Assembly: GCA_030670545.1 (NCBI GenBank)
Contig: DAOVBM010000001.1
Location: 17,932 to 81,931 of the forward strand
Direction of reading: 5' to 3'
Length of the DNA: 64,000 nt
DNA from: Candidatus Woesearchaeota archaeon
Lineage (GTDB): Archaea; Nanobdellota; Nanobdellia; Woesearchaeales; JAGLGH01
Under the pieces are notes generated by a model. That model searched no databases. It was not told the DNA's origin and worked only from the letters and a program-made list of their open reading frames with translations. Of this stretch, positions 1-64,000 are shown piece after piece (within the stretch, counting starts at the first letter, position 1; each line of letters starts with the position of its first letter). The position numbers were made by a program, and so were the translations under genes.

Positions 1-98
1 ACTTGGAGAGCAAAGCTCTCTAAGTTACTTGGAAAGCATAGCTTTCTAAGTTCTTAAGGAGTTTTACTCCTCAAGACTTAATGAGCTATGCTCATCAA
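1..98. repeat. Array of four tandem ~26-nt mini-hairpins. Each has a 6-7-bp stem and a 3-nt loop, and the stems differ between units by compensatory changes that keep them paired.
   Basis: The units are cttGGAGAGCaaaGCTCTCtaag, cttGGAAAGCataGCTTTCtaag, cttaAGGAGTtttACTCCTcaag and aATGAGCtatGCTCATcaag. The array sits immediately 3' of the stop of the giant gene. Confidence 0.7.
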
Positions 99-150
99 GT
101 TTTGAAGATGCTCGTGCTCCCTTATTATATGGCTTATTACATACTAAATT
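99..150. repeat. Partial copy of the MITE-like element R1, retaining its 3' half (gttttgaagatgctcgtgctcc ... ttattacatac).
   Basis: Matches 19994-20040 and 60566-60610. Confidence 0.5.
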
Positions 151-151
151 A

Positions 152-1327
152 TCAATACTTCTTCTTTTTCCAGATAAATAGTGCAAGAGCTGAGAATAGC
201 AATATAGCCTGAAGAAATGTAAACCCAAGTGGAACTATGAACACCGGAACTTCAACACGAGGAGGCCTTGGAATGCCTATTGGAATTGGGACCTCTCTTA
301 TCTCTTCTTCAACCTCTATAGGCTTTTCTTCTTCAATCTCTTCAGGCGGAATCTTCTTTTCCACTGGCGGCAACTCTTTTACAGGGATATATATAGGCTC
401 TCTTTCTTTAGGAACAATCGTATAAACCACATACAATGGGCCTCCACCACCTCTTGCAGCAACTGTAGATACACTGAATATTGTAGTTGCTGTATTGCTG
501 CTGCCTGTTGTGTCATTCGCAAACACGCTTATAATATAATCTCCAAGTTCAGTAAGATTATCAGGTCCAAAGATGAAATCAATGGATTGGTTTGTCAATT
601 GCTGCAATAGTGTGCCGTTTGGGTCTGTGACATTAGCGATAACTGAATCAAGGAAGTAGTCAGATGCATTGAAATCTATCCTGACACTTTCATTGCCAAA
701 AAGCAGTTCAGTATCATTTATTGATATGTTGATTGCTGGTGCTGTTGTGTCAGCGACATCAAATGAATCATTCTCTATATTGAACCTGCCTAATGTGTCG
801 TTTGCAAATACACTGATATTATAGATTCCTAATGATGTAAGGTTTTCCGGGCCAAGCTCTAATGTGACATTTGCATTTATTTGATTGAATAGTAAGGTTC
901 CATTGGGATAAATGATTGTGGAATTGGCAAAGTCAAGGGATGGGTCTGTTATAGTGATATTGATCAATACATATTCGTATCCAAATTCAGGAGCAGTATC
1001 ATTTATTGATATGTCCTTTGTCGGAGGAAGCGTATCATTCACATTGAAGTATGCTATTGATGTGTTTGTATTTCCTGATGTGTCATTCGCAAACACTGTT
1101 ATATTATATCTTCCTAACTCTGTGAGATTAGCTGGTACTAAGATTATATTCTGGCTTTGATCTGTGAACTGTCCCAAGAGTGTACCATTAGGATACGTGA
1201 CATTAGCAATTACTGAATCAATAAATTGATCAGATGCATTGAAATCAATGCTTACAGATTCAATGCCATATTCTGCTTCTGTGTCATTGACTGAGATATT
1301 TATGGTAGGAGAGATTGTATCATTCAC
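152..1327 (-). CDS. C-terminal continuation of the giant surface protein in another frame. It carries three more ~95-aa repeats, a Pro/Glu/Lys-rich stalk, a C-terminal TM helix (PLGFTFLQAILLFSALALFIW) and a KKKKY tail. It is either separated from the upstream ORF by a 7-nt frameshift or is a separately initiated small protein.
   Basis: Translation continues the repeat consensus exactly (YFNVNDTISPTINISVNDTEAEYGIESVSIDFNASDQF). Relative to neighbouring repeat copies, a 7-nt segment (atgctat/GCATATT) is missing at about 1325-1330. Confidence 0.7.
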   Translation of the reverse strand: MNDTISPTINISVNDTEAEYGIESVSIDFNASDQFIDSVIANVTYPNGTLLGQFTDQSQNIILVPANLTELGRYNITVFANDTSGNTNTSIAYFNVNDTLPPTKDISINDTAPEFGYEYVLINITITDPSLDFANSTIIYPNGTLLFNQINANVTLELGPENLTSLGIYNISVFANDTLGRFNIENDSFDVADTTAPAINISINDTELLFGNESVRIDFNASDYFLDSVIANVTDPNGTLLQQLTNQSIDFIFGPDNLTELGDYIISVFANDTTGSSNTATTIFSVSTVAARGGGGPLYVVYTIVPKEREPIYIPVKELPPVEKKIPPEEIEEEKPIEVEEEIREVPIPIGIPRPPRVEVPVFIVPLGFTFLQAILLFSALALFIWKKKKY

Positions 1328-4300
1328 ATTGAAGTTGAGGTGTTTGTATTTCCTGATGTGTCATTCGCAAACACTGTTATGTTGTATCTCCCAAGCGCTG
1401 TAAGATTGGCTGGCACTAAGATTATATCCTGGCTTTGATCTGTGAACTGCCCTAATAGTGTTCCATTTGGATATGTCACATTAGCAATAACTGAATCAAG
1501 ACCAACATTTGATACATTAAAGTCTATTTGTATAGACTCAACTCCATACTCCACGTCTGTGTCATTGAGTGATATATTGATAGTAGGCGCGATTGTATCA
1601 TTCACATTGAAGTATGCTGTTGAGGTGTTTATATTTCCTGATGTGTCATTCGCAAACACTGTTATGTTGTATCTTCCAATTGCTGTCAGGTTAGCTGGGA
1701 CTAATAGGAAATCAACAGATTGATTTGTCAACTGCTGCAGCAATGTTCCATTTGGATATGTTACATTAGCTATTACTGAATCCAGTAATCCATTAGATGC
1801 ATTGAAATCTATTTGTATAGACTCAACTCCATACTCCACATCTGTATCATTCACTGATATATTGATAATAGGCGCGATTGTATCATTTACATTGAAGTAT
1901 GATGTCGATGTGTTTGTGTTCCCTGCTGTATCATTCGCAAACACTGTTATGTTGTATCTTCCAATTGCTGTCAGGTTGGCAGGCACAAAGATAAAATCAA
2001 TTGACTGGTCGGTCAATTCCTGAAGCAAAGTGCCGTTAGGATATGTCACATTCGTTATAACTGAATCAAGGTTAGGATCTGATGCATTGAAATCTATGCT
2101 CACAGACTCAACACTATACTCTACATCTGTACCATTCACAGATATATTGATTGTCGGAGAATCTACATCCACCACTGTCCCTGTCACATAGGCATTGTCA
2201 ATCTGGCAGATTTCATTATTGCTGCTTGACAAGCACCTGAACCTTATCTTAAGATCATGATTATTGTCTGCATTGCTTGTGAGATTATAACTGTAAAGGG
2301 TATAATCTGTAATATCTTCGATACTAAGCACATTTATCCAGGCTGTGCCATTGTACCAGTCAGCTGCAATATATTCGCCTGCATCAAGCCTTTCAGTATT
2401 TGCATAGAAGCTGAAACTTATGTTAATATATCCCCATGTGCTGATATTTGTCTCAACTATGCTTTCTCCTACTGTGTTCTCTGCTTCAGCATTATATATG
2501 CCGGCAAAAGGGCTTGTACTTGCAATGAACCATGCAACTCCAGCTCCACTTGTTGTCCAGTTGTTTGTTGAGAGATTGCCTGATTCAAAATCCTCAAAGA
2601 ATGTGCCATTTCCTTCACTAAGCGCAGGGTCTCCAGGGCTGAAAGTATAATTCGCATAATCAGAAGATTTTATATTGAACCAAGGCCGCCATACTCCCAA
2701 ACAAGTGTAATTCGATAGGTTGTAGGTTCCGTCGCACTTGAAGAATATCTGATTCTCTGTGCTTACAGGCTTTTTCTCAATTACAAGACTATCGTAATTC
2801 AATCCAGATGGATCAATTATGGAGTGCGCAAGGCTTGCATTGTATCCCCCCATTATGGTGTCTGTCATGTTCGTGTTGTTGAATAATCCCCTTATCCAAT
2901 AATTGTCAATAGTCGGATCATACATAGCAGTCACCTGCATGTCATATTCTTCTGTGCCTGAGAAATTAAAATCATATGACTCATTTGAAGAATATACAAG
3001 ATGGCCTGTTGAGTTGTATATCATGAATGATGCATTAAGGAAATTTCCATCCCCATCTACAAGAGTGCCGTTTAATGTGTAATTTGCAAGAGGGATTATA
3101 TCATAAGTCCACTGCTCGCTGGTGTACCATGTGCTGTTTGTATCATTTGCATAGCTTCTCCATATATAGCTGCCTGGCTGGATGTTTGTGTAGTTGTAAT
3201 AGAACTCCTGACTCTCATTGCCTGTTGCTGAATAGTTCTGCAATGTTCCAGTGAAGTTATGCTCGAAATAGACAGTATCTGCAGTCAGGTTCCAGCTTAT
3301 ATTGAACTGGTAGCTATTGTCTGGTATGTAATATACTATTCCTGAAGGATATGTCCTGTTGTCATACCATTTAAACACAAAGACATCAAAACCTGATGCA
3401 GATATATTTGCATTTCCAAAAGTGTCATTCGCAAATACTGTTATATTGTATCTTCCGACTGCTGTAAGGTTAGCAGGAGCAAAGATGAAATCAACAGACT
3501 GGTTGGTCAATTCCTGAAGCAGAGTGCCGTTAGGATATGTCACATTTGCTATAACTGAATCAAGATCAAGGTCTGATGCATTAAAATCTATGCTCACAGA
3601 TTCCACTCCAGATTGAAGATAAGAATCATTTATAGATATGTTTATTTCAGGAGGCTCTGCCTCAATTGTGATTGTAAAGTTATTATCATCCCAGCCTGAA
3701 TTGCCAAGCGAATCATAAGCAAGACAGTTCCAGATATAGCTTCCGTCAGCTATTCCTGTTAAGGAGAATGTGCTGGAATTTGACAATCCTGATACTGTAT
3801 CAGTTTCATTTGCCGCAAAGCTGCCGCTGATATTATGATATAATGTTATGTTGGTAAGAGCAGCCATGTTCTCTGTTGCATTGCATATAAACTCTACTGA
3901 GCTGTTTAATATGGTAGTTGCATTTGGCGGAGAGGAAAGTATCACCCCAGGAGCAAGATTGTCGATTGATATTGTCCTGTTATCTGAGTAGCCAGTAATA
4001 TTGTTAGCGTCAGTGCATTCAATATGCCATAGGAAGGTCTCATTCTGCCTGTCAGTAAGATTGATGTAATTTGTTCCGTTTGTGACTACAGATGACTGGT
4101 TTGATACATTGAAAGTGGAGTTCAGGTACACGAGGCAGCTGTATATCTCATTGCTGAGGTCGCTGGCATTGAAGCTGAATGTTATATTGCCGTTATATGT
4201 GCCGTTTACTGGAGCTATCAACGTTATGTCAGGAGGTGTTGTATCTGAAGTATTGATTGTGTTTATGAAAACATTTGCACCCTCATAATACTCTTTTGAG

Positions 4301-7300
4301 CAGAGAATCTGAGGTGAGTACTGCCCAGTCTGGTTAAAGTTGATAACTACCTGATAAACTGAAACATTAGTTTCATCCATATCATAAGTTCCCATACCAG
4401 GTATGTCCACATCGCAGTTTGCTCCGGATATTGATATATTTGTATCTGTATCTGTGTAATTTGCAGTTATCAGTACAGAATCCCCCAGTTCAATAGTTGA
4501 GGTATTCTCCTCTCCTACCACCTTTGTCGGATGATTAATAACAGTAACAGTTCTGGATATAGTATCTAATCTCTGATAATTTTCCTTTGAGCAGTTGAAA
4601 GTATGCGTTTTAGCGCCAAGGATAGTCCAGTTGAAATTTTTTGAATAATTCCCATCTTCTACAGGCAGGTCAGGAAGGATAGATGAAGGGCTGCCTGATA
4701 TTGAGCAGTTCGCTCCAAGAATAGGATTGTCATCCTCATCTGTATAATATGCCCAGATTATGTAATTGTTGTTAGGCGCAGGCCCTGCATATATTGTTGC
4801 ATTGGCGCTTACGCTGAGGTTTGCAGGCTCCACATTTATCTCAACATCTGATGAGTTTACTGGAACTCCGTAGCTTATGCTGTCATACGGCGTGACTTCG
4901 CAGAGCCACTGATCTCCAATCGAGGTGTTTTGGTATGAGACTGTTGCGCCTGTAAATGAAGTAAGAGTATCATTTCTATACCATGCAATTGTGCTTTGGT
5001 CTGGGTCTCCTTCAGTATCATTATATGTGTAATTGCATGTCATGTTATTCAGAGTGCTGACATTTGCTCCGTCATAAGTCGGGCTTATTGTGACATTCGT
5101 GACATTCGGCGCTGTCTGTGTCCTTACATAGAATGTCACATCCTTCTCGTCTATATTATTTGATGTGTCATTGATCCACATTGTGATGTTGTTCCATGCA
5201 GATTCTATTGCGGTGAAATTCACGTAAAGGCTGCTGCAGTCGGATATTGATGTATTTGTTGCATTATTGTTAAGATTATACCAGCACTTGTCAGGATAAT
5301 CTTCTGTATATGTCCAGTTCAGTGTGAGGTTCAGGCTGTAATATGTTGAATTGTTTATAGGATATGTTATGTTCAGGACAGGGTCTATGTTATCCTGCAC
5401 AGTGATCTGGATTGCAGTGGAGTTGATGTTGTTGGATGTATCATTTACAGATATGTTCAGGTAATATATTACTGGAGTCAGTGTTGTTGCGTTTGTTATC
5501 AGGCCAGATGAAGAGTTTATTGCAAAATTATTTGTGTCATTTATAAAATATTTATCCACAAGATAGTTGTCGCTTGCATTCACGTCATAGCTGAAAGACT
5601 CGTTGTATTCAGTTACCTGGTTTTGCGGAGTCTGGTCCCATGTCGGAGCAGTTGTATCATTCACATTAAAGAAAGATGTCGAGGTATTTGTATTGCTGGA
5701 TGTGTCATTCGCAAGCACAGTTATGTTGTATCTGCCAAGCAAGGTTAAGTTGGCTGGAACCAGAATTATATCTTCGCTTTGGTTTGTGAACTGCCCCAAT
5801 AATGTGCCATTCGGATACGTGACATTGGCGGTTGTTGAGTCAAGGAATTGGTCAGATGCATTGAAATCTATGCTTACAGACTCTATTCCATACTCTACCT
5901 CTGTGTCATTGACAGAAATATTGATTGTCGGCGCTATTGTATCATTGACATTGAAGTATGATGTTGTTGTATTGCTAAAGCCTGCTGTGTCATTAGCAAA
6001 CACGGTGATGTTGTATCTTCCAAGCGCTGTCAGGTTTGCGGGTTCAAATTCAAAATCAATTGACTGGTTTGTAAGCTGCTGGAGCAGGGTGCCATTAGGG
6101 TAAGTAACATTAGCGATGACAGAATCCAGGCATGTGTCAGAGGCATTGAAATCGATGTTTACAGATTCTACCCCATACTCTACATCTGTGTCATTCACTG
6201 AGATGTTTATTGTCGGCGTTATTGTATCATTCACATAGAAGAATGATGCTGTTGTGTTCGTGTTGCCGGATGTGTCGTTCGCAAATACTGTGATGTTATA
6301 TCTTCCAAGCGCTGTTAGGTTGGCAGACTCAAATTCAAAGTCAACAGACTGGTTTGTAAGCTGCTGGAGCAGTGTGCCATTTGGATAAGTCACATTTGCG
6401 ATGACTGAATCAAGGAATTGGTCAGAAGCATTGAAATCTATGCTTACAGACTCAGCACAATATTCTATTTCTGTATTATTCACTGATATGTTTATTGTTG
6501 GCAACGTATTGTCTATTGTAAAATTAGTGCTGCTGTTAGAGCATAGGTCACCATCATCACAACCTTCAACATAAATCATCCAATCGCCATCAGGCACTGT
6601 ACTTGAATTAAATAGCTGATTGGTCAATGAAGTGCTTGTGTTTATTGTCTGGTTGAAACTATCATCTGAATTGAATAATGAGACATTATAAGTGACAGGA
6701 TCGCCATTAGGGTCTGAAAACGCTGACCATGTTATATTTATTATTCCACTTTCATGATCCCCTTGCGCAGGATTGGTTATCTCATTAGTTATTGGAGCTA
6801 CGTTGACTGACACGATATCTAATTGAGACAATTCAAACCCATTAAGGCTTTCATCAAACTGCTCTACAGTTTCGCCAGAAGCAACTTCCAGCCACAGATT
6901 GAAAGTGTAACTATTTCCGACTGTTAAGTTTTTACATACCATGTAGATAAAAGCATTGCCTATATCTAAATCAGAACTGAGGTACCTTTCTTTCTTGGAA
7001 TAGCAAAGTGATTCCGGAACATCTGATGAGTTTATGAAATAAATCGGTGTCTGGTTTCCTGATGCTGTCCCGAATGATGAGCTCATAGAGATAAAATATT
7101 GTGTCCCATTCTGTATTGTAACTGTCTTATTCACAAGATTATGCAGCCCTGCTGAATAATTTTGGGATGAAGTCAAGTTTGTCAAAGGATTTGAGACTTG
7201 AAAATTATCAATTAGATTAAGATTATTATCTTTCAGATCAAATTCAGCCAATGCAAAATCAACTGTTACTGTCCCTGCGCTTGTTTTAGACTGGATAGTA

Positions 7301-8900
7301 TGGTTGTGAGTCCCTACATCACCAGTTTCTATATAAACCCCTGATACTGAACCTATATCCGAGGGGCTGGAAAGATATCTTCTCCAGAAGGGGGAAATTT
7401 CATTGGTACCTAAATCTTCAAAGTAATAATCTACTGTTGCTGAAGATGCATTTCCCTGGACAGTCTGTTTGGTCATAAAATATGTTGGGGCTGCATATGA
7501 TTTTGTGATTGTCCAATTAAAAGCAGGAACAAAAGATGCAGAGGAATGATTATAACTATCATTTGTCAGTTGTATCCTCACTAACTCTCCCATTGTAGTC
7601 TCGAACTTCCCAAGAAGCATATCAATATCATTTACATCTATTGAGCCGTTGCCAGTTCTCTTAAATTCTATTGTAATATTATGTTCTCCTGAACTCACAT
7701 TAATAAGGAAAGGTTTTGTGCCAGTAGAGCCTTCATCGTCAATATCTTCAACTGTTCTCAATTTCTCCTCTAATTTCGCAATATTATCTACCTTAATCCT
7801 CACCCATACATCATTAGCTCCAAGGCCTGTTAGTTTCTTGATATTCATTGAAGAAAAGAAACTTAAATTTACACTAGGTCTTGATGTGTTGAACAGCTTA
7901 AGCACGCCAATCACATAATCTGAGCTTGCAAAAGAGAAATTTGTAGTATCAAAATCAACTCCAAAGATGGAAGTATTGCCTCTGACATAAAAGTATGTCT
8001 CTTCTGTATCATTGATATTATTTGATGTATCATTGGCAGTAAATGTCATATTATACCTGCCAAGCAGGAAAGGCGCTGTGAAGGAATTATTGTACTTGTC
8101 TCCTGCTGCATTGCTCAGTTCAACCAATTCACTTGTTCCGTTCGGATAAGTGATATTGGCGCTTACATTAGCCACTGCAAAAAAATCAGTGACATTAGCA
8201 GCTATCTCTATTATATCAGAAACATTGAAGTGTGAGTCTGCTGTTGGAATAAGGTCAAATACTGAAGGTCGCGTAGTATCATTCACATAAAAGAATGATG
8301 CTGTCGTGTTTGTGTTTCCAGATGTATCATTGGCAAACACGGTGATGTTATATCTTCCAAGCGCAGTGAGATTCGCAGACTCAAATACAAAGTCAATTGC
8401 CTGATCTGTCAACTGCTGCAACAAGATGCCATTAGGATAAGTTACATTGGCCATCACTAAATCAATACCTACATTTGATGCGTTAAAGTCTATTAACACA
8501 GACTCAATACCATACTCTACTTCTGTATCATTCACTGAGATATTTATTGTTGGCGGAACAGTATCATTCACATTGAAGTATGCTGTTGATGTATTCACAT
8601 TGTTGGATGTATCATTGGCAAATACTGTAATGTTATATCTTCCAAGAAGTGTAAGGTTTGCTGGAACAAGGATTATATCTTCGCTTTGATTTGTGAACTG
8701 CCCTAATAGTGTTCCGTTCGGATACGTGACATTTGCTATCACTGAATCAAGGAACTGGTCAGATGCATTGAAATCTATGCTTACAGATTCAATTCCATAC
8801 TCTGCATCTGTGTCATTTACTGATATGTTTATCAAAGGATATACTGTATCTGTTGAATTGACAATATCCAAAGTATCGCTTGCAGTTTGGTAATACTCTT
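400..8900 (-). repeat. Intragenic tandem array of ~285-bp (~95-aa) repeats inside the giant surface-protein gene. Several copies are more than 85% identical at the nucleotide level.
   Basis: Recurrent strings such as gtgtcattcgcaaacactgttatgttgtatcttcc and ctggctttgatctgtgaactgcc appear at 1065, 1340, 1625, 1925, 3425, 5705, 6000, 6290, 8330 and 8620. Confidence 0.85.
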
Positions 8901-11900
8901 TTGAGCACGAGACAAATGGAGTGAATTCGCCAGGCTGTGTGAACTGCACAATGACTTCGTAAGTGATTGCTCCTGTCTCGGTCATATCAAAAGTGCCATA
9001 TCCTGCCAGGCTGACATTACAAGCAGCTCCTGTGAGAAGGGCGCTTGTATTTGCATCAGTGTAATTTGCTGTGAAATTCACATGGCTGCCGTATCCTATA
9101 TCAGTTGCGTTCTGCCCCCCCTCAAGATTAGTTGGATGGTTCAATACAGTCACTGTCCTTATGAGCGTATTTTGAGTCTGGTAATTTGTCTTTGAGCATA
9201 TGAAAGTATGGGTCTTTGGCCCTGTGACTGACGACTGGTAATTATGTGTATAGTTGCCATCATTATCACCATCAGAAAGAGTGACATCCGGAGTGCCATC
9301 TGTAGAACAACTAGCACCTAGTATAGCATTATCATCCTCATCTGTGTAATATGCCCAGATAGTGTAATAGTTATTTGGCTCAGGCCCCACATATATTGTG
9401 GCATTATCGCTTACAGTTATATTTGTCCTTTCTGTGCCAATCTCAGCATATGATGAATTTATTGGTGATCCATAGATTATACCATCATAAGGCGTGACTT
9501 CGCAGATCCACTGCTCTGCAAGTGAAGTATTCTGGTACTGGACAGTTGCGCCAGTAAATGAAGTTAAGACATTATTTTTATACCATGCAATTGTGCTTTG
9601 GTCAGGATCACCCTGCGTATCATTGTACGTGTAATTGCAGTGCATGTCATTCAGCGTGCTTACATAGATGCTGTTATATTTGGGCGTGATTGTGACATTT
9701 GTGATATTCGGAGCTGTCTGTGCCATGGCATAGAATGTTACATTATCTTGATTCATATTATTTGATGTGTCATTGATCCACATTGTTATGTTATTCCATG
9801 CAGAATCTATCGCAGTGAAATTAGCGTAAAGGTCACTGCAGTCAGCTATTGTTGTATTTGTCGCATTATTATTCAGATTGTACCAGCACTTGTTAGGATA
9901 GTCTTCTGTGAATGTCCAGTTCAGTGTGAGATTGAGTTCATAATAAGTAGAGCCATTTACAGGGTATGTTATGTTGATTGTTGGAGCGAGTGTATCAACA
10001 CTAAAATTTCGCGTCTCGCTTGTGTTTGCATTAGTTGCATCATCCCAGCAAGTTACATTCCAGCTATGGCTGCCATCTGCGAATCCCTGAACATCATGCG
10101 AAACTGCACTCCCATTAGGGCTATAATAATCAGACATGTTTACTATGCCATCAATTGTCAGATTACATAATAAGATAGTATCTATATTATCAGTAGCTGT
10201 CCAATTAAAGTAAACTACTGTCTCATTTGTGGTATAATCATTGTCTGGAGAATTTAATTCTATTGAGGGTTTTGTTTTATCTACTGTAAAAGTTCGCTGG
10301 TTGCTCGCAGCTGTTTCTGCAGGGTCTATACATTCAACCTTCCATGTTTGATTTGTTCCCTCAGCAATTCCACTGACTTCAAAAGTAGTATTTATGCTTT
10401 CGTTTGTAGAACTATTTGTCTGGTTTAAAATATCGTTGATATATAAAGAACAATTTAGGTTATCATGGGCAGGGTCAACAACATAAAAAGTGAAGTTTAT
10501 ATCTCCATCTTTATCTGCATAATTATTTTCTGGCGAGACAAGGTACACCAATGGAGGCACTATAGTTATTGTTATGGGAGTTGAATTGACAGAATTCCCA
10601 TCATCATCTGTTGCCTGAACAGTTATGGTATAATCACCAATATCTAAGGCAGGAGAGATACTAAGATTAGTGGAAGAGCCATTAGTAACAGTTCCGTTCT
10701 GCCCATTTGCTGTATCATTGACGAAGATGGTATAATTTATATCAGGAGTTGTATCGTCTGTTAGTACAAAAGTAATTAGAGGGCTTGGGTCAGATATATT
10801 TAAACCAGATGAAGGGTAAGTTATCTGCGCAGTTGGAAGTCCTGCAGTGATTGTGAAATTCCTGGTTTCAGAAATATTTGAATTATCTTCTGTATCTGTG
10901 CAGTTTATGAACCATGAATGGTTGCCAATAGATAATCCTGGGACTGTGAATAATGTAGTGGTATCGCTGCTGGTAGATTCATTTGTCTGATTCAGGACAT
11001 CATCAATATAGATTGAACAATTGAGTGGCGCTGAGATATCTACAGCCTTAAATGTAAAATCAATATCTGTTGGACCTGTTGTATAATTATCACTTGGACC
11101 AAGCAGGGTTATTTGAGGCAGTTCATTATCGATAATTAATGAAGCGCTTGGGAATTTTACATAAGAGTATTCAGTATTTTCCCATTGGATGTATGCAAAT
11201 TTGGCAGCAGCACCAGTTATATTAACGCAAAACTGAACACCTACTCGCTCACCAGAGCTTAGATTAAGATCATCACTGTAAGGCACATTATCACCCCAGT
11301 TATTGAAATCAGCTGCAGCGCATATATTTGAGGTTGCAGTAGTTGTGTTGAATGGATTGTATTCTGTTCCATTATATTTTAATATTTTAGCAAAAAGAAA
11401 TGCATCTGGGTTAGATGCTGAGCAATCGCCAAAAATGGAGAAGTTCCAGGTTCCATTAACTATTGTTTGTGTTGTCCAGTTTGGGGCAATCCATTTTTCA
11501 GGAAAGCATACAACACCCGGAACACTCAGGTCAAGGGGGGCAGAAGTATAACCAGTTATCCCAACGCTTTCATTCTTCATTTGATGATAAGCAGGATATT
11601 GGGAATCAGAAGCATTAAAAAGATAGTAGGTACTTTCATTTACTTCACCAAAAGCAGGATCATCCGGAGTCAATTCAAATGTGTATTCTTGTCCTGGAAC
11701 TAATCCTGTCTTAAACAGATTCCATTCACCATAGCATTCCTGCTCACTAAAGTTCCATTCCCTGCATTTATACAATGTTGTTCCTTTTGCAATCACAGTG
11801 ACATTTGCTGTTGTGAAATTCATTGCAGTCGGGTCAATAGCATAAGCCTGGACATAACTGCCCAGCTCTTCATGTTCAGATATGTTCAATTCCTCCATTT

Positions 11901-12957
11901 TTATGAATTCTTCAACATCCGAGTCTGAGATATAATCTTCTATAGTGATATTTTTGATGATATGATTTACTGGCTTGATGATGACCTTATGCTTTCCTGC
12001 ATGGAGATTTACTGCAGTCCTGTTTTTCACTTTCGTTGCTTTAAATTGATTATCCTTGTCTGCCTGTCCCCCCTCTAAGCTTATGCTCTCTTCAATATTT
12101 CCTGATGTATCATAAAATTCAATATGCGCTTCTATATCATTACCTGCTGCATCTTTTATTGTAGCATTGAATGTTATATTCATGCCTGTGATGTTTAAAG
12201 CAGCAAACTCACTCAAATTAAAGATTACTGATCTATCCTCCTGAACTGCATCAGAATCAACTATAAAGGATAGATGAAGTTTAAGGATATGGACATACAG
12301 GCCTGCAACATCATCTTCCTGGATAAGCAGCAATTCTGAAATGGGTTTCATTAGCGTAGGAAGCAGGAATTTAATAGCAGCCTTATCACTGTAATATATT
12401 TCTGAATATATATCTGTATGATCTAGGCTGTAATCGACATAAAGCAGTCTTGCAGAAATGCTATTGTTCTTAGCTATTCCATATTTACTTTCAAAAATAT
12501 ATACGTCATTATCCCATTTATCATTGGAAGGCGCAAAGTCAATAAATTCACAGCATTTTGCTGAGCCATGGCAGAATGATGTTGTGATTTCATTATCAAA
12601 AGAATAAATCTCCCAGACAGAGCAGAGGTTGGAATAGTTAAGGCGGGGTATGACAATGCTGTCATTGATAGAAAATCCAATAACCCCTGCTCTTTCCAGA
12701 TCTGAGAGATTCGAAAGAATATGAAGATCTATTTGAAGTTCAGGATCAGTATTTTTATCAGAAAATGTGAAGCAAGCAAAGCATATAAGTATAATAATGC
12801 AGCATATAAGAAATAATAAATTCTTTAAATCAATCTTAGAATCCCTGAATGCTATAAGCTTATAAATCTTATAGCTATAATTATGTTTGCTGCATAATTT
12901 TAAATGCATTGTCATGGCCTGCCTATAATAAAGTTTTATCGCCTTAAACGTATACAT
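1324..12957 (-). CDS. Giant secreted/surface repeat protein, 3877 aa. It has an N-terminal hydrophobic anchor/signal, about 25 tandem ~95-aa beta-rich repeats (consensus ...TINISVNDTEVEYGIESVSIDFNASDQFLDSVIANVTYPNGTLLQQLTNQS...LGRYNITVFANDTSGNTNT...), and a ~440-aa module duplicated internally. N-x-S/T sequons are extremely dense, which fits a heavily N-glycosylated archaeal cell-surface or adhesin-like protein.
   Basis: Single uninterrupted ORF of 11.6 kb. The N-terminal residues 47-63 (LLFLICCIIILICFACF) are hydrophobic. The repeat periodicity is visible at both the protein and nucleotide level. Confidence 0.85.
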   Translation of the reverse strand: MYTFKAIKLYYRQAMTMHLKLCSKHNYSYKIYKLIAFRDSKIDLKNLLFLICCIIILICFACFTFSDKNTDPELQIDLHILSNLSDLERAGVIGFSINDSIVIPRLNYSNLCSVWEIYSFDNEITTSFCHGSAKCCEFIDFAPSNDKWDNDVYIFESKYGIAKNNSISARLLYVDYSLDHTDIYSEIYYSDKAAIKFLLPTLMKPISELLLIQEDDVAGLYVHILKLHLSFIVDSDAVQEDRSVIFNLSEFAALNITGMNITFNATIKDAAGNDIEAHIEFYDTSGNIEESISLEGGQADKDNQFKATKVKNRTAVNLHAGKHKVIIKPVNHIIKNITIEDYISDSDVEEFIKMEELNISEHEELGSYVQAYAIDPTAMNFTTANVTVIAKGTTLYKCREWNFSEQECYGEWNLFKTGLVPGQEYTFELTPDDPAFGEVNESTYYLFNASDSQYPAYHQMKNESVGITGYTSAPLDLSVPGVVCFPEKWIAPNWTTQTIVNGTWNFSIFGDCSASNPDAFLFAKILKYNGTEYNPFNTTTATSNICAAADFNNWGDNVPYSDDLNLSSGERVGVQFCVNITGAAAKFAYIQWENTEYSYVKFPSASLIIDNELPQITLLGPSDNYTTGPTDIDFTFKAVDISAPLNCSIYIDDVLNQTNESTSSDTTTLFTVPGLSIGNHSWFINCTDTEDNSNISETRNFTITAGLPTAQITYPSSGLNISDPSPLITFVLTDDTTPDINYTIFVNDTANGQNGTVTNGSSTNLSISPALDIGDYTITVQATDDDGNSVNSTPITITIVPPLVYLVSPENNYADKDGDINFTFYVVDPAHDNLNCSLYINDILNQTNSSTNESINTTFEVSGIAEGTNQTWKVECIDPAETAASNQRTFTVDKTKPSIELNSPDNDYTTNETVVYFNWTATDNIDTILLCNLTIDGIVNMSDYYSPNGSAVSHDVQGFADGSHSWNVTCWDDATNANTSETRNFSVDTLAPTINITYPVNGSTYYELNLTLNWTFTEDYPNKCWYNLNNNATNTTIADCSDLYANFTAIDSAWNNITMWINDTSNNMNQDNVTFYAMAQTAPNITNVTITPKYNSIYVSTLNDMHCNYTYNDTQGDPDQSTIAWYKNNVLTSFTGATVQYQNTSLAEQWICEVTPYDGIIYGSPINSSYAEIGTERTNITVSDNATIYVGPEPNNYYTIWAYYTDEDDNAILGASCSTDGTPDVTLSDGDNDGNYTHNYQSSVTGPKTHTFICSKTNYQTQNTLIRTVTVLNHPTNLEGGQNATDIGYGSHVNFTANYTDANTSALLTGAACNVSLAGYGTFDMTETGAITYEVIVQFTQPGEFTPFVSCSKEYYQTASDTLDIVNSTDTVYPLINISVNDTDAEYGIESVSIDFNASDQFLDSVIANVTYPNGTLLGQFTNQSEDIILVPANLTLLGRYNITVFANDTSNNVNTSTAYFNVNDTVPPTINISVNDTEVEYGIESVLIDFNASNVGIDLVMANVTYPNGILLQQLTDQAIDFVFESANLTALGRYNITVFANDTSGNTNTTASFFYVNDTTRPSVFDLIPTADSHFNVSDIIEIAANVTDFFAVANVSANITYPNGTSELVELSNAAGDKYNNSFTAPFLLGRYNMTFTANDTSNNINDTEETYFYVRGNTSIFGVDFDTTNFSFASSDYVIGVLKLFNTSRPSVNLSFFSSMNIKKLTGLGANDVWVRIKVDNIAKLEEKLRTVEDIDDEGSTGTKPFLINVSSGEHNITIEFKRTGNGSIDVNDIDMLLGKFETTMGELVRIQLTNDSYNHSSASFVPAFNWTITKSYAAPTYFMTKQTVQGNASSATVDYYFEDLGTNEISPFWRRYLSSPSDIGSVSGVYIETGDVGTHNHTIQSKTSAGTVTVDFALAEFDLKDNNLNLIDNFQVSNPLTNLTSSQNYSAGLHNLVNKTVTIQNGTQYFISMSSSFGTASGNQTPIYFINSSDVPESLCYSKKERYLSSDLDIGNAFIYMVCKNLTVGNSYTFNLWLEVASGETVEQFDESLNGFELSQLDIVSVNVAPITNEITNPAQGDHESGIINITWSAFSDPNGDPVTYNVSLFNSDDSFNQTINTSTSLTNQLFNSSTVPDGDWMIYVEGCDDGDLCSNSSTNFTIDNTLPTINISVNNTEIEYCAESVSIDFNASDQFLDSVIANVTYPNGTLLQQLTNQSVDFEFESANLTALGRYNITVFANDTSGNTNTTASFFYVNDTITPTINISVNDTDVEYGVESVNIDFNASDTCLDSVIANVTYPNGTLLQQLTNQSIDFEFEPANLTALGRYNITVFANDTAGFSNTTTSYFNVNDTIAPTINISVNDTEVEYGIESVSIDFNASDQFLDSTTANVTYPNGTLLGQFTNQSEDIILVPANLTLLGRYNITVLANDTSSNTNTSTSFFNVNDTTAPTWDQTPQNQVTEYNESFSYDVNASDNYLVDKYFINDTNNFAINSSSGLITNATTLTPVIYYLNISVNDTSNNINSTAIQITVQDNIDPVLNITYPINNSTYYSLNLTLNWTYTEDYPDKCWYNLNNNATNTSISDCSSLYVNFTAIESAWNNITMWINDTSNNIDEKDVTFYVRTQTAPNVTNVTISPTYDGANVSTLNNMTCNYTYNDTEGDPDQSTIAWYRNDTLTSFTGATVSYQNTSIGDQWLCEVTPYDSISYGVPVNSSDVEINVEPANLSVSANATIYAGPAPNNNYIIWAYYTDEDDNPILGANCSISGSPSSILPDLPVEDGNYSKNFNWTILGAKTHTFNCSKENYQRLDTISRTVTVINHPTKVVGEENTSTIELGDSVLITANYTDTDTNISISGANCDVDIPGMGTYDMDETNVSVYQVVINFNQTGQYSPQILCSKEYYEGANVFINTINTSDTTPPDITLIAPVNGTYNGNITFSFNASDLSNEIYSCLVYLNSTFNVSNQSSVVTNGTNYINLTDRQNETFLWHIECTDANNITGYSDNRTISIDNLAPGVILSSPPNATTILNSSVEFICNATENMAALTNITLYHNISGSFAANETDTVSGLSNSSTFSLTGIADGSYIWNCLAYDSLGNSGWDDNNFTITIEAEPPEINISINDSYLQSGVESVSIDFNASDLDLDSVIANVTYPNGTLLQELTNQSVDFIFAPANLTAVGRYNITVFANDTFGNANISASGFDVFVFKWYDNRTYPSGIVYYIPDNSYQFNISWNLTADTVYFEHNFTGTLQNYSATGNESQEFYYNYTNIQPGSYIWRSYANDTNSTWYTSEQWTYDIIPLANYTLNGTLVDGDGNFLNASFMIYNSTGHLVYSSNESYDFNFSGTEEYDMQVTAMYDPTIDNYWIRGLFNNTNMTDTIMGGYNASLAHSIIDPSGLNYDSLVIEKKPVSTENQIFFKCDGTYNLSNYTCLGVWRPWFNIKSSDYANYTFSPGDPALSEGNGTFFEDFESGNLSTNNWTTSGAGVAWFIASTSPFAGIYNAEAENTVGESIVETNISTWGYINISFSFYANTERLDAGEYIAADWYNGTAWINVLSIEDITDYTLYSYNLTSNADNNHDLKIRFRCLSSSNNEICQIDNAYVTGTVVDVDSPTINISVNGTDVEYSVESVSIDFNASDPNLDSVITNVTYPNGTLLQELTDQSIDFIFVPANLTAIGRYNITVFANDTAGNTNTSTSYFNVNDTIAPIINISVNDTDVEYGVESIQIDFNASNGLLDSVIANVTYPNGTLLQQLTNQSVDFLLVPANLTAIGRYNITVFANDTSGNINTSTAYFNVNDTIAPTINISLNDTDVEYGVESIQIDFNVSNVGLDSVIANVTYPNGTLLGQFTDQSQDIILVPANLTALGRYNITVFANDTSGNTNTSTSM

Positions 12958-13532: not shown

Positions 13533-13645
13533 TAGCATCATAAAGTCAAAATTCCTTCTATAACCCCTCCAGCTCGTCGCGGGGGGTTGTCCCTTACGGG
13601 GACGCAGAGCTTGCGTTAACCCTTTGAGAATTTTGAAGATGCTAA
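13533..13645. repeat. R1 MITE-like element copy. It has a degenerate 5' end, a GC-rich hairpin core (gctcgtcgcggggggttgtcccttacggggacgcagagc) and the ttttgaagatgct arm.
   Basis: Alignment with the copies at 19872-20040 and 60435-60610. It overlaps the last codons of the gene at 13616..14464. Confidence 0.65.
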
Positions 13646-16816: not shown

Positions 16817-17833
16817 GTGGGGCATATGACTCCAGAACAGGCAGCAAAAGTAAAAGAACTTGCTGAAACACTAAAGAACAGCGGACTTGCTGCAAGCACA
16901 TTGCAGGCAGTTGAAAGAGCAAAGGATATTATTGGGATTCCTGATGAGAATAATGAGCTTCTTGAAAAAGAGCTTGGCTTGAAAAAAGAAGAAGCAAAGG
17001 AAATAGAGAAGCAGATTGAAGATCTCAAGGAAGAGCCAGATCCAGAAGCAGCTGGACAAGTGCAGAAATGGGAAGAAGAGTTGAAAGAAGATGTTGGAGA
17101 GTTGGAAGAGCAGAAAGAGAATATAGATACAGTTGAGGAAACTGCTGCAGAAGAAACTGAAAGCGAAGAAGATACAACCGAAGCAGAAGAAGAGACAGAA
17201 GAGACAGAAGAGACTGAAGAGACTGAAGAACAACCCGAGGAAGAAGATACAACAGAAACTGAGGAAGAAACTGAAGAGGAAGTAGAAGAACAGCCTCAGG
17301 AAGAAGATACAACCGAAACAGAAGAAGAGACTGAAGAGGAAGTAGAAGAACAGCCCGAGGAAGAAGATACAACCGAAACAGAGGAAGAAACAGAAGAGGA
17401 AGTAGAAGAGCAGCCTCAGGAAGAAGATACAACCGAAACAGAGGATGAGACTGAAGAGGAAGTAGAAGAACAACCAGAGGAAGAAGATACAACCGAAACA
17501 GAAGAAGAGAGAGAAGAGGAAGTAGAAGAACGACCAGATGAAGAAGAAACACCTGCTGCACAAGAAGAATTAGATGAGTATGAGAGAGAATTCCAAAAAG
17601 CTGAAGAAGGAACAAGAGAAATGGCAGAAGAGTTAGAAGAAACACAGCAAGAGGAAACTGAACAACAAGATGCGCCTAAAGAAAACAACAATGAAATCAT
17701 GACAAATTCTGATAAAATATTAAATCAGACTGAAGAGAATAGTCAGAATTATGACATATCCAATGATGTAAGGACTGTTGATGAGATATTTGCAGAACTA
17801 GATACCTCTGTCAGGAAAGATGAACCGCAGTAA
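16817..17833 (+). CDS. Highly acidic Glu/Thr-rich repeat protein of unknown function. The N-terminal ~90 aa are helical and the centre is a low-complexity E/T/D array.
   Basis: A strong Shine-Dalgarno (taggaggtgggg) lies 5 nt upstream of the ATG. There are five tandem 60-bp units. Confidence 0.6.
   Translation: MGHMTPEQAAKVKELAETLKNSGLAASTLQAVERAKDIIGIPDENNELLEKELGLKKEEAKEIEKQIEDLKEEPDPEAAGQVQKWEEELKEDVGELEEQKENIDTVEETAAEETESEEDTTEAEEETEETEETEETEEQPEEEDTTETEEETEEEVEEQPQEEDTTETEEETEEEVEEQPEEEDTTETEEETEEEVEEQPQEEDTTETEDETEEEVEEQPEEEDTTETEEEREEEVEERPDEEETPAAQEELDEYEREFQKAEEGTREMAEELEETQQEETEQQDAPKENNNEIMTNSDKILNQTEENSQNYDISNDVRTVDEIFAELDTSVRKDEPQ
17225..17530 (+). repeat. Five tandem 60-bp units encoding EEDTTETEEETEEEVEEQP(Q/E).
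   Basis: Near-identical 60-nt periodicity. Confidence 0.85.
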
Positions 17834-17926
17834 GGCATTCCAAAGATAAATGCTTATGACAAAAGCGTAAGGCTGGATGATGGAGAGAGCAACGAAAGCT
17901 CGTTTGATGATTTAGTAGACGAGTGA

Positions 17927-18577
17927 TTAATTATTTCTTATAAATTCAATTATTTTTTCTTTTTCCTGCAGGCTTTTAACAACAATATCAGCTTCTGCCA
18001 GATCTTTTTCAGGGAAGCTTGTCTCGACTGCAATGCATTTCATGCCTGCATTCTTTGCTGCCTTAACCCCAGTAAGAGAATCTTCAAACACAACGCATTG
18101 AGATGGCTCAACTCCCAGATGTTTAGCAGCTTTCAGGTAGATGTCAGGCTCTGGTTTGTGATTTTCTATGTCTTCCAGACCAAGAATCGCAGAGAAATAG
18201 GAATCAACAGAGAATCTCTTAAGGAGATGCATAACATTATTACGCCATTCGCTTGAACCTACTGCAAGCTTGTATCCATGGTCATGGAGAGCCTTAAGCA
18301 GCTCTTTGGCTCCCTTAAAAAGATTTAAGTCTGAAGTATAAAGTTTCTCTGTGATATCATGTTTCCTGTCCCTTAACTCAATGGGGTCAAGATCCAGACC
18401 TCTTGACTCATTAATATGCCTTATGAAGTCAGGCCCGATTCTGCCAATAAAAGGCATCCATTCCTTATATTCTATATCGACTCCGCATTCCTTAAGGACA
18501 TTTTTCCATATGTTGAAATGCATGGGTATGCTATCTGCAAGAACACCATCCACGTCAAAAATTGCTGCTTTTATCAT
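17927..18577 (-). CDS. HAD-superfamily hydrolase, beta-phosphoglucomutase/phosphatase-like.
   Basis: N-terminal motif I AIFDVDGVLADS and a C-terminal Asp motif. Confidence 0.8.
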   Translation of the reverse strand: MIKAAIFDVDGVLADSIPMHFNIWKNVLKECGVDIEYKEWMPFIGRIGPDFIRHINESRGLDLDPIELRDRKHDITEKLYTSDLNLFKGAKELLKALHDHGYKLAVGSSEWRNNVMHLLKRFSVDSYFSAILGLEDIENHKPEPDIYLKAAKHLGVEPSQCVVFEDSLTGVKAAKNAGMKCIAVETSFPEKDLAEADIVVKSLQEKEKIIEFIRNN

Positions 18578-19809
18578 CTTTTTACAATCTTCACTTCAAG
18601 AACCTTGTTTTTTGTCGCTTTTTCTACAATTATATCATATTTCCCTGTTGATACCTTGTCTCCATGCTTAGGTATTTTCTCAAGCTTGTGCATGATCATT
18701 CCAGAGATTGTGTCATAGGAATCATTCTGCCTGAATCTTGTGCCAAGCTCTTTGTTTATTTCATCAATCCTTGCTTTTCCCCTGACAATTGCTGTTGTCT
18801 TATTGATTTTTCTGATAGGATGTTCTTTTATATCTTTCTCATCATATATCTCGCCAACAATCTCTTCCAAAAGGTCCTCTATGCTTACTATTCCTGCAAC
18901 ACCGCCATGCTCATCAATAACAACTGCCATCTGTATCTTTTTGTCCTGGAACTCTGTAAGCATGTCATCTATCTTTTTTGAATCAGGAACCAGATAAGAA
19001 TCATGCATTATATCTTTAAGCACGTCATCTTTTTTATTTTTCACTATAGCACTGAGTATATCCCTGATATGGACAATACCAATTATATTATCTGTTTCAC
19101 CGTTATATACTGGAATTCTGGAGAACTTCATTGACATTACTTTTTCAAGCGCATCAGCAATTTTTATTCCAGCATTAAGGCGGAACATATCTGTTCTTGG
19201 TGTCATCACCTCACCGACACTTATGTCATTGAACTTGAATATGTTATGTATCATTTCTTTCTCTTCTTTTTCTATTGAACCAACCTCTTCGCCAAGCTTT
19301 ATTATTGATTCTACTTCTTCTTCAGTTATCTGGAGAGATCTTTGATTGTCATCTCTCTTTGTTATCTTCTTTGACATCCAGTCCAGCATTATTATCAAAG
19401 GATAGAATAATACCATCAAAATCCTCATTAATTTGGCAGTCGCAAGGCATATCTTTTCCTTATGGAGCATTGCAAACGATTTTGGGGTGACTTCTCCAAA
19501 TACAAGCAATATCAATGTCACTGAGCCAGTTGCTATTGATATGCCCCATGATGCTGAAATCTCAAGAGCAATAGAAGTAGCTATAGCTGAAGCTGCAACA
19601 TTTACAAGATTATTGCCTACCAATATTGCAATAATAAGCTTGTGCATATCATGCTTTAGTCTTTGGATAAGGTCTGCGCCTTTTACTTTTTTGTCTACAA
19701 GATGATGAATCCTTAATCTGGAAAGAGATAAAAAAGCTGTCTCAGTCATAGAAAAGAATCCTGAAAAGAAAAGCATTATTACAAACATCAGAATCTTATA
19801 CTTTATCAT
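18574..19809 (-). CDS. CNNM/CorC-family membrane protein with a DUF21 TM domain, a CBS pair and a CorC_HlyC C-terminal domain. Likely a Mg2+/Co2+ efflux or hemolysin-family transporter.
   Basis: Domain order in the translation; TM-rich N-terminus. Confidence 0.8.
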   Translation of the reverse strand: MIKYKILMFVIMLFFSGFFSMTETAFLSLSRLRIHHLVDKKVKGADLIQRLKHDMHKLIIAILVGNNLVNVAASAIATSIALEISASWGISIATGSVTLILLVFGEVTPKSFAMLHKEKICLATAKLMRILMVLFYPLIIMLDWMSKKITKRDDNQRSLQITEEEVESIIKLGEEVGSIEKEEKEMIHNIFKFNDISVGEVMTPRTDMFRLNAGIKIADALEKVMSMKFSRIPVYNGETDNIIGIVHIRDILSAIVKNKKDDVLKDIMHDSYLVPDSKKIDDMLTEFQDKKIQMAVVIDEHGGVAGIVSIEDLLEEIVGEIYDEKDIKEHPIRKINKTTAIVRGKARIDEINKELGTRFRQNDSYDTISGMIMHKLEKIPKHGDKVSTGKYDIIVEKATKNKVLEVKIVKR

Positions 19810-19871
19810 TTGGAATCAGCTATTATGATTTTATTTTCATACTTTAATAATCTTTGCATTGAATATATCTA

Positions 19872-20040
19872 TCTAGTCTATTATTTAAGGAGCACCAGCA
19901 TCATCACGTCAAAACTCCTTCAATTTTTGAAGTCTTGCTCGTCGCGGGGGGATGCCCCCTGCGGGGACGCAGAGCCGTCTAAAAATACTTCCTGAGTTTT
20001 GAAGATGCTCGTGCTCCTTTATATCTGACTAAATACTTAC
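19872..20040. repeat. R1 MITE-like element copy with the aggagcaccagcatc arm, the core hairpin gctcgtcgcggggggatgccccctgcggggacgcagagc, the arm gaagatgctcgtgctcc, and the 3' TIR gactaaatacttacc.
   Basis: Alignment with 60435-60610. Confidence 0.75.
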
Positions 20041-20047
20041 CATTGAA

Positions 20048-23253: not shown

Positions 23254-23690
23254 CCGCTGCTTGCAGTGGCTGGGTATGGCTAATGATTATATGCATGGTA
23301 TATTTTTATGACCAAAAACCCAATGTAAGATTATACCCCCCTCTTGCGACGATTGGATTTTTGATTTATCTTCAATTGCTTTGTTCAGGTTTTTGATACT
23401 TAGTATACCCCCAGTCTGCGACTGGTGGATTATATTGTGGTATACTAAGCCCCAAAATTAGCAACCCTATCCTGAAAGGCGAGCATGCCACCAGTCTATG
23501 ACTGGTGGTGGTTGCTAATTTTTGACATAGTCAAATCCTATTCCATCAACCTAAAGGTTGGGGTATTTACGGATTTGACATTATTCTTGGTCAAATTTTT
23601 GGGATTAAAAATTTCGCACTAAAGTGCTAGGTATTTAAACTCCATTAGAAAATTCCACTATGCGAAATTTTCAATAAGCCTACATTCAAG
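23254..23690. repeat. R2 modular structured repeat. It has three decaying ~75-bp hairpin units, the twin-palindrome module I (23393-23527), module B, and module A in inverted orientation.
   Basis: Modules align to 59596-59895 and 36265-36420. Confidence 0.7.
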
Positions 23691-28597: not shown

Positions 28598-28690
28598 TAC
28601 CTTAACTTAATGACATTGGTTGTCCCTTACAGGGACGCAGTACCTTCTATGAACAGGGCAAGGGTTTTGAAGGTATTAGTAGATGCAAAT
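28598..28690. repeat. Degenerate R1-related fragment (ggttgtcccttacagggacgcag ... gggttttgaagg).
   Basis: Similar to the hairpin core and 3' arm of the 13533 copy. Confidence 0.4.
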
Positions 28691-54128: not shown

Positions 54129-54944
54129 TCACTTTAACCTTGGTTTATTCTTATTCTCAACTTTCTTAATACTATCGGTTGGAGGCAGATTTTCAGGCAT
54201 AGTCCCACCTAACTCCTTTATTGTCTGCCTTATTTTTTTGCCAACCGCGAAATGAGTTTTATTAGCTTTATCTTTCCCTTTTATTTTTTCACGCCTTAAT
54301 TTTTCTTCGGTTTGTGTTGCTCTAAACAGATTTGCTGCAAGCTCAGTAGTTCCCATGTGGTCAAGTATTCTTTGGCTTTTCTTTAGCTCTTTTTTAGCTT
54401 GAATCTCCTTACTTCCTAATCCCCCATAAAGCCCTTTGTAGCCATGATTTTGAAAAATAGAATATTCTCTTGGGCTTACAACTCCTGCTTTTTTTGCAGA
54501 TTCTGCTAGTTTCTTATTATGGGTTCGCATCTCATTTCTTAAGAACAATCTTTTTTCTTCTTCTGATTTAAATTTTAAATACTTGTTCTGTTCTAGGATT
54601 TCCTGTTTTCTGGTTTGTACTGCAAAATAAGTCTGTCCAAGAGCTACAATCTCCTTGGAAGGATCTGCATTCTGGACAATCAAATAACATGCATAACGAG
54701 ACAAAGCATAATCCTCTATCTCCCTTTTTGCTCCAGAGCCTAACTCAACCTTTTTGGCTAGGTGGACAAAATGGTCTACAACATCTTGATTTGAGTTAAA
54801 GCAGGATTTTTGGGCCTTCTTAATAACATTCTCAAACTTTCGCCATTCAGCATAATCTAATGCTTTCTGTAAATCTCTTGCAGACCAGAAATAATTGCCA
54901 AACTCATTGACTTGCTTGATATTTTCAAAGATTAATTGATTCAT
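54129..54944 (-). CDS. DinD-like protein (DNA-damage-inducible protein D family; Bro-N-like N-terminus, SRYACYLIVQNADPSK).
   Basis: Recalled similarity to DinD N-terminal region. Confidence 0.5.
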   Translation of the reverse strand: MNQLIFENIKQVNEFGNYFWSARDLQKALDYAEWRKFENVIKKAQKSCFNSNQDVVDHFVHLAKKVELGSGAKREIEDYALSRYACYLIVQNADPSKEIVALGQTYFAVQTRKQEILEQNKYLKFKSEEEKRLFLRNEMRTHNKKLAESAKKAGVVSPREYSIFQNHGYKGLYGGLGSKEIQAKKELKKSQRILDHMGTTELAANLFRATQTEEKLRREKIKGKDKANKTHFAVGKKIRQTIKELGGTMPENLPPTDSIKKVENKNKPRLK

Positions 54945-60610: not shown

Positions 60611-60701
60611 GCAAAAGCTGTTGTAACTATCCTAAAATAGGAACATTTAAATAATAATAAAATTATAAAAAAATCATAATTAACATCAGGGGGGATTAGA
60701 A

Positions 60702-63950: not shown

Positions 63951-64000
63951 AGAGGTTCATATTAGCCCTTAATTCCACAAATTATTTATACTATTCTTCT

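Follow-up and report, generated by a model that had tools for sequence, protein, structure and literature searches.

A giant surface-protein gene followed by four short hairpins

The window, by which we mean the whole 64-kb stretch of DNA analyzed here, encodes several archaeal-type proteins: a NOG1-type GTPase, a TFIIB-like zinc ribbon, a Toprim-domain protein that we took to be a DnaG-type primase and, near the far window end, Trm1. A giant gene occupies positions 152-12957 of the minus strand. It comprises ORFs of 3877 aa and 391 aa with N-glycosylation sequons throughout, and it is split by a frame change at 1324-1327, within 285-nt tandem domain repeats. This frame change could be a real frameshift, the mark of a pseudogene or a misassembly of the repeats. 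The closest homologues of the giant protein are annotated as Nanoarchaeota and Woesearchaeota. Homologues of its N-terminus are partial proteins, found mostly on short contigs (the longest is 15 kb), and a protein search with its C-terminal 131 aa returned no matches. The following features lie between the window start and the C-terminal end of this gene.

1-25: mini-hairpin u1, ACTTGGAGAGC-AAA-GCTCTCTAAGT; stem position 5 is G.T on the + strand
27-51: mini-hairpin u2, ACTTGGAAAGC-ATA-GCTTTCTAAGT; stem position 5 is G.T on the + strand
52-76: mini-hairpin u3, TCTTAAGGAGT-TTT-ACTCCTCAAGA; stem position 5 is A.C on the + strand and G.T on the - strand
76-100: mini-hairpin u4, ACTTAATGAGC-TAT-GCTCATCAAGT; stem position 5 is A.C
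98-144, + strand: right arm and degenerate right terminal inverted repeat (TIR) of R1 copy A; AAGTTTTGAAGATGCTCGTGCTCC is identical to the other copies
145-152: candidate right target-site duplication of R1 copy A, TAAATTAT, proposed because copies B, C, L002 and L003 carry such duplications; the matching left copy would fall upstream of position 1
152-1327, - strand: ORF encoding the C-terminus of the giant Ig-repeat surface protein, including a C-terminal membrane anchor; stop codon at 152-154

A hairpin scan identified four adjoining 25-nt palindromic units in window positions 1-100, which read ACTTGGAGAGCAAAGCTCTCTAAGT-T-ACTTGGAAAGCATAGCTTTCTAAGT-TCTTAAGGAGTTTTACTCCTCAAGA-CTTAATGAGCTATGCTCATCAAGT. 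The first-pass annotation of this DNA had reported four hairpins at the 3' end of the giant gene, and both the hairpins and the minus-strand stop codon are where it placed them. It had described self-complementary stems of 6-7 bp set between shared flanks. The self-complementarity was borne out; the stems, in contrast, measure 11 bp, because the ctt...aag "flanks" are themselves outer pairs of the stem (the outer four, ACTT/AAGT). Each stem consists of 10 Watson-Crick pairs and one non-Watson-Crick pair and closes a 3-nt loop. The spacers between units are variable and only 0-3 nt long (TTA, TT, A), which gives a unit-to-unit spacing of 24-26 nt, and Tandem Repeats Finder (TRF) reported tandem periods of 26 and 24 nt at the array. 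The outer half-sites of the units (ACTTRR / YYAAGT) are conserved and the centers vary.

The hairpin array is far beyond chance. A degenerate two-unit pattern matched four times at the array compared to 0.00 matches expected from 100 shuffles, and only about 12 hairpins with at least nine Watson-Crick pairs occur outside the array in 64 kb. Relative to shuffles, the 160-nt region that includes the array folds more stably whichever strand is used, with z = -6.0 for the + strand and z = -8.3 for the - strand. When folded alone as single-stranded DNA, each unit reaches -5.0 to -7.6 kcal/mol, and the units are stable on either strand. In the minus-strand RNAfold prediction for the array region, the R1 right arm pairs with u1.

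Several known types of array and motif were considered and rejected. A coding region at the array is contradicted by stops in all six frames of 1-153; an upstream + strand gene could end, at most, within the first 57 nt of the window. CRISPR arrays do not match, as the units are not identical and have only 0-3 nt between them. An integron attC array was rejected for lack of cassettes between the units and of an integrase among the scanned ORFs. Hammerhead, C/D-box, k-turn and bulge-helix-bulge motifs were compared by eye with the R1 stem and the units; none fits, and Rfam returned only noise for them.

R1 is a family of MITEs

The array lies within a copy of a repeat that we call R1. R1 is an imperfect palindrome of ~175 bp (174-176 bp) without coding capacity. 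Its 14-bp TIRs, GTAAGTAAAAAGTC...GACTTTTTACTTAC, are perfect in copy C and are present in copies at the related loci L002, L003 and L004. A profile search with nhmmer found six R1 copies and fragments in the 64-kb window, all of them on the + strand. These are listed here together with the target-site duplications of the complete copies examined.

Copy A, 96-147, + strand: right arm only, E = 9e-8 (nhmmer)
Copy B, about 19864-20046, + strand: complete; target-site duplication CATTGAAT/CATTGAAT (8/8)
Copy C, about 60435-60614, + strand: complete, with perfect 14-bp TIRs; target-site duplication GCAAAAGG/GCAAAAGC (7/8)
Copy D, about 63902-63963, + strand: left end only, then unrelated sequence to the window end
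Copy E, 13533-13644, + strand: inner arms and GC-rich core, without outer arms or TIRs
Fragment F, 28618-28674, + strand: decayed core and right inner arm
Copy L002: target-site duplication TAATGCTC/TAATGCTC (8/8)
Copy L003: target-site duplication TTATTATT/TTATTCTT (7/8)

All four complete R1 copies examined (B, L002, C and L003) carry 8-bp target-site duplications. R1 is a MITE because it has TIRs and target-site duplications and is small, non-coding and multicopy. Compared with described MITEs by its features, it is a previously uncharacterized family in Nanoarchaeota. This fits the very high MITE densities reported for DPANN archaea, with 105 MITEs/Mb in one Woesearchaea genome (PMC11602168). 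Among 185,579 species-representative genomes, a 22-nt R1 arm pattern matched only two Nanoarchaeota MAGs (JAGLGH01 and JAYEPB01). The R1 copies in these MAGs are ~90% identical and all have canonical cores; two of the four copies are located at the ends of contigs. The R1 arm pattern had no matches in JGI metagenomes, nor did the R1 core pattern in IMG/VR. The left-arm pattern did match IMG/VR 37 times, but the right arm was nearby in none of these cases, and the matches appear to be due to chance.

R1 breaks assemblies and adjoins genes. The related assemblies L001, L004 and L005 break inside R1, and a 2.4-kb Logan contig from a near-identical strain (SRR26080965) spans window positions 17479-19912, with its end in R1 copy B. 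The window itself starts and ends inside R1-type elements (1-144 and 63903-64000). The left arm of copy D breaks off at GTCAA, after which come 51 nt of unrelated sequence. We considered whether copies D and A could derive from a single insertion, as its two ends, or from a circular junction, and rejected this: their flanks, GTGAATAG and TAAATTAT, agree at only 3/8 positions, and the D arm is truncated. If orientation were random, the uniform + orientation of the six copies and fragments would have a probability of ~3%; it could reflect a replication-direction bias or chance. The orientation of R1 copies relative to neighboring genes is not consistent.

The R1 left arm reads …GGAGCACCAGCATCATCAGTCAAAACTT. 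The canonical interior contains two C/U-rich stretches and an invariant core, GCTCGTCGCGGGGGG-N11-GGGGACGCAGAG. In six aligned copies, the GC-rich core and inner arms (AGCATC..GTCAAAA / TTTTGAAGATGCT) are invariant. The CCCC/GGGG hairpin of the core has a constant stem and a loop that varies (AUAC, AUCC, CUGC, UUC, UUAC), and it has no Rfam match. The TIRs, by comparison, decay: the left TIR of copy B is mostly gone and copy E lacks its outer arms. Plain MITEs do not usually have an interior that is more conserved than the ends, and this pattern suggests that the R1 core may be functional itself, as an RNA or as a binding site.

The ends of R1 offer a lead on its origin. IS66 terminal inverted repeats begin GTAAGCG and IS66 insertions have 8-bp direct repeats, with most members of the family being proteobacterial (PMC11946415). 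R1 is similar in that it begins GTAAGTA and carries 8-bp duplications. However, the agreement at the terminus extends over 5-6 bases only, and an IS66-type transposase was not seen in the window. The IS66 family may be the source of the R1 ends, which we regard as a lead rather than an assignment. No transposase of any kind was found among the 57 window ORFs scanned. TIRs together with 8-bp target-site duplications are the signature of DDE-type, double-strand transposition and not of HUH-type transposition through single-stranded DNA.

The array lies inside R1 copy A

The right end of R1 copy A directly follows the array. The right arm (98-144) ends in GGCTTATTACATAC, which fits the R1 TIR at 11/14 positions, and a 28-nt stretch of copy A (98-125) recurs at 19995 and 60565 in copies B and C. 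The copy A TIR, TAAATTAT and the minus-strand stop codon at 152-154 follow one another, which places the MITE directly behind the giant gene. Copy A is known from its right end only, since the left end lies beyond the window edge. In this copy, the four hairpins occupy the place of the GC-rich R1 core, in agreement with the first-pass annotation, which had recognized the array as a replacement of that core. The 3' half of u4 runs straight into the R1 right arm (…GCTCATCAAGTTTTGAAGATGC…). Two u4 sequences, ACTTAAT and CTCATC(C)AAGTTTT, recur at the inner ends of R1 copy C, and the 5' and 3' halves of u4 are complementary to each other. Outside such short matches, neither the left arm nor the core of R1 is significantly similar to the interior 1-97, and for this reason the descent of u1-u3 from R1 is only inferred. 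We rejected u1 as a diverged R1 left arm, as its local alignment was no better than those of shuffles.

The position of the array at the window start raises the question of whether the palindromes are an assembly or sequencing artefact and absent from the real genome. Window position 1 coincides exactly with the first stem base of u1, and an artefact would be in keeping with R1-type elements at both window ends and with the breaks inside R1 in related assemblies. Known end artefacts, however, are long perfect fold-backs, whereas this array consists of four different short palindromes with compensatory differences. The units are unlike familiar adapters, and the array runs without a break into an R1 arm that is genuine and diverged. 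We therefore consider an artefact very improbable.

The stems covary and keep a non-Watson-Crick pair

We compared the four stems pair by pair, with pairs 1-11 numbered from the outside.

u1: AT CG TA TA GT GC AT GC AT GC CG
u2: AT CG TA TA GT GC AT AT AT GC CG
u3: TA CG TA TA AC AT GC GC AT GC TA
u4: AT CG TA TA AC AT TA GC AT GC CG

Two-sided changes are found at five of the 11 stem positions and one-sided changes at none. Paired cells make up 95.5% of this table, and the observed covariation score was reached in only 1 of 500 column shuffles. The covariation among the four units is real. The first-pass annotation had reported this stem-preserving covariation correctly and had concluded that it implies selection on structure, a conclusion that does not necessarily follow. 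Template switching in quasi-palindromes copies one arm to the other and generates compensatory changes as single mutational events (PMC8794818, PMC3820800). Because arm-to-arm template switching also yields two-sided changes, such changes need not mean structural selection.

Stem position 5 is never a Watson-Crick pair in any of the four units; u1 and u2 have G.T at this position, and u3 and u4 have A.C, which reads as G.T on the opposite strand. The loops are rich in A in u1/u2 and in T in u3/u4. Since both the position-5 pair and the loops swap strand, u3 and u4 resemble strand-flipped versions of u1 and u2. u1 is identical to the reverse complement of u4 at 20/25 positions, compared to 17/25 in direct orientation. 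Simple quasi-palindrome correction should erase the position-5 mismatch, yet all four units keep it. The retained mismatch hints at a constraint beyond template switching. The units have also diverged strongly, with identity down to 11-12 of 25 positions while pairing is retained, and this requires either very efficient arm-to-arm copying or real selection. Because the non-Watson-Crick pair at position 5 is kept in all four units and is poorly explained, we reserve a minor but substantial share of probability for explanations with selection on the structure itself. Selected hairpins would point to an undescribed hairpin-recognizing system in DPANN archaea.

The palindromes could also be read as duplex DNA. 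The four units would then be operators with half-sites ACTTRR / YYAAGT for a dimeric protein, for example subterminal transposase sites of a larger R1-related element upstream. Conserved outer half-sites around variable centers count in favor of such operators. The units adjoin a transposon end, the upstream side is hidden by the window edge, and copy D provides an instance of an R1-type end joined to other sequence. A dimer needs no central complementarity, though, and positions 6-8 and 11 covary perfectly. The spacing of 24-26 nt is irregular, and canonical R1 transposes without such sites, as its target-site duplications indicate. We give this explanation a low probability.

No transcript contains four clean hairpins

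The array follows the stop codon of a very long gene at a distance of 52 nt, and it could function in RNA. It might be a 3'-UTR structure that acts as a barrier to 3' exonucleases or as a termination or processing signal, as REP sequences do in E. coli mRNAs, or it might give rise to a MITE small RNA. Several of the observations above speak for this explanation: folding is far above shuffles on both strands, all changes between units are two-sided, and the conserved position-5 pair is a G.U, which RNA tolerates, in two units per strand. The same pair also creates a difficulty. G.U falls on opposite strands in u1/u2 and in u3/u4, so neither transcript contains four clean hairpins. On the sense strand of the giant gene the A.C mismatches are in u1/u2, and on the other strand they are in u3/u4. 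This strand asymmetry argues against function in one particular RNA strand. Moreover, the minimum-free-energy fold of the sense strand is one long hairpin between units rather than four local ones.

We searched for terminators and known RNA families at the array. A G+C-rich stem followed by a T-run was not found on either strand of 1-400, and no run of at least five T on the sense strand of the gene was seen by eye at the array. Rfam 15 at the gathering threshold gave no match in the whole window. Within 1-160, only generic hairpin models (miRNA models) matched, at no more than 22 bits compared to gathering thresholds of 62-250. Together with the lack of a strand with four clean hairpins, these results speak against the first-pass proposal of a terminator or 3'-UTR stability element. 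An RNA element is further disfavored by the location of the array inside a mobile element whose other copies have no fixed orientation to neighboring genes, and by the lack of a second example in IMG/VR, JGI metagenomes and 88.6 kb of sequence from this and related genomes. Overall, we regard an RNA element as unlikely.

No further units were found

We looked for relatives of the hairpin units beyond the array. A covariance model of the four units, run with filters off, detected no further unit in 88.6 kb comprising the window and five related loci. A scan of the same 88.6 kb for the unit frame combined with a palindrome was also negative, and the two-unit hairpin pattern had no matches in IMG/VR. 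The pattern did match 29 loci in JGI metagenomes. We rejected these loci as relatives of the array: most belong to an unrelated 26-nt satellite that is not palindromic, and L063 is a tandem TTGACA repeat of 24 nt. The array is thus unique so far, within the sequence covered. The annotation had proposed, as a check, a search for more units sharing the ctt-stem-loop-stem-taag frame; their absence from the 88.6 kb, IMG/VR and the JGI metagenomes counts against a dispersed family.

These searches bear on the possibility that the units are single-stranded DNA substrates. In this explanation, the units are palindromes like those of REP/BIME or IS200/IS605 elements, they are recognized by a HUH (Y1) transposase encoded elsewhere, and the mismatch marks strand or orientation. 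The units are indeed imperfect palindromes, each with a single mismatch that is conserved at one stem position, each is stable as single-stranded DNA, and the unit pairs have opposite "orientation", as in BIMEs and REPINs. Strand bias is a known trait of single-stranded DNA transposons, and the six R1 copies are all on the same strand of the window. Against these points, neither a Y1/HUH nor any other transposase was found among the 57 ORFs, and no other units occur in 88.6 kb, whereas REP sequences tend to be present in very many copies. The TIRs and 8-bp target-site duplications of the host element are not products of HUH transposition. RAYT/REP systems are not known in archaea. Single-stranded transposition substrates therefore seem quite improbable, and the first-pass suggestion of a substrate for a hairpin-recognizing transposase is weakened as well.

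A related idea keeps the hairpin as the selected feature. The 25-nt units would be a structure-selected module, an archaeal counterpart of REP/BIME or boxB sequences that amplifies within MITEs and is read in its folded, single-stranded form by a dedicated protein, with the G.T/A.C pair as a recognition or orientation mark. We assign this idea a small chance. If it is true, such a dedicated hairpin-module system would be the first described in DPANN archaea.

A rearranged MITE interior is the preferred reading

We favor the reading that the array is the rearranged interior of an old R1 copy, copy A of a MITE family of a Nanoarchaeota/Woesearchaeota-type DPANN archaeon, that inserted directly behind the stop codon of the giant gene, and we put its probability at roughly 55%. 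An R1 copy inserted behind the giant gene, as the homology of the arm and TIR shows. The GC-rich core would then have been lost from copy A, and the innermost arm sequence (ACTT...AAGT) may have closed into a short perfect palindrome, u4, whose 3' half is still similar to the inner right part of R1. Slippage between the ACTT/AAGT(T) edges could have amplified this palindrome in tandem into at least four units with irregular spacers of 1-3 nt. The variable spacers (TTA, TT and A) are as expected after slippage and indels. The units would subsequently have diverged while each stayed self-complementary, either because template switching within hairpins copied or reverted changes in the arms, because of weak selection on the hairpin or cruciform, or through both. 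The array would have no dedicated cellular function on this reading, and any effect on the 3' end of the giant-gene mRNA would be incidental. The array is most likely an unusual variant of an ordinary element, namely a MITE copy with a tandem-hairpin interior.

If the preferred reading is true, a transposon relic can become an array of short hairpins. It would also mean that "compensatory" stem changes may build up without an RNA function, which calls for caution in covariation-based RNA discovery in repeat-rich DPANN genomes.

Comparison with bacterial repeat elements

We compared R1 and the array to repeat elements of bacteria. R1 resembles the pneumococcal BOX elements (boxA-(boxB)n-boxC) and the Correia elements of Neisseria in being short, non-coding, multicopy and intergenic, in having inverted repeats and target-site duplications, and in folding into a long hairpin. 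The number of internal modules in BOX elements varies through tandem duplication. Unlike in BOX and Correia elements, tandem modules occur in one R1 copy only, and each module is a near-perfect palindrome that differs from the others by compensatory changes.

REP, BIME and REPIN sequences are imperfect palindromes of ~25-35 nt in head-to-tail clusters, often just downstream of genes, and they can stabilize mRNA. The array units are similarly ~25-nt imperfect palindromes that are clustered, alternate in orientation and have a conserved stem imperfection. They differ from RAYT-associated REP/BIME sequences in several ways: there is no RAYT/Y1 gene in the window, no GTAG-type head and no multiplicity in the sequence covered, and the array is archaeal and lies inside a transposon with TIRs and target-site duplications. 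Quasi-palindrome correction, by contrast, is a mutational mechanism and not an element family, and alone it explains neither the position-5 mismatch nor the tandem amplification.

Other features of the window

The window contains a second intergenic repeat family at 59597-59868, 23392-23645 and 36257-36399, with segments that are 92-97% identical and with inverted partial copies. It includes perfect hairpins with 9-bp stems, CCACCAGTCT-NNN-GACTGGTGG, at 23488, 59695 and 59775. This family is probably another MITE-like element.

Five tandem minus-strand genes encoding proteins of 311-428 aa lie at 31728-37643. Four of them (31728-32663, 32656-33909, 33902-35188 and 36402-37643) have DNA segments in common that are 64-84% identical, and they match nothing in Pfam or NCBIfam; the fifth (35181-36239) matches DUF6638 only. 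A 60-nt tandem repeat at 17207-17551 (5.8 copies, 88% matches) encodes an acidic E/T-rich stretch of an ORF without family matches (16817-17833). Two closely spaced genes, at 42296-43270 and 44010-44960, have Fic/DOC domains. Near them are a gene with a Bro-N domain (54129-54944), a PD-(D/E)XK/Cas4-like nuclease gene (55802-56617) and a stretch of 25-29% GC at 48-52 kb. The stretch that holds the Fic/DOC, Bro-N and nuclease genes may be an integrated mobile or defense-related region.
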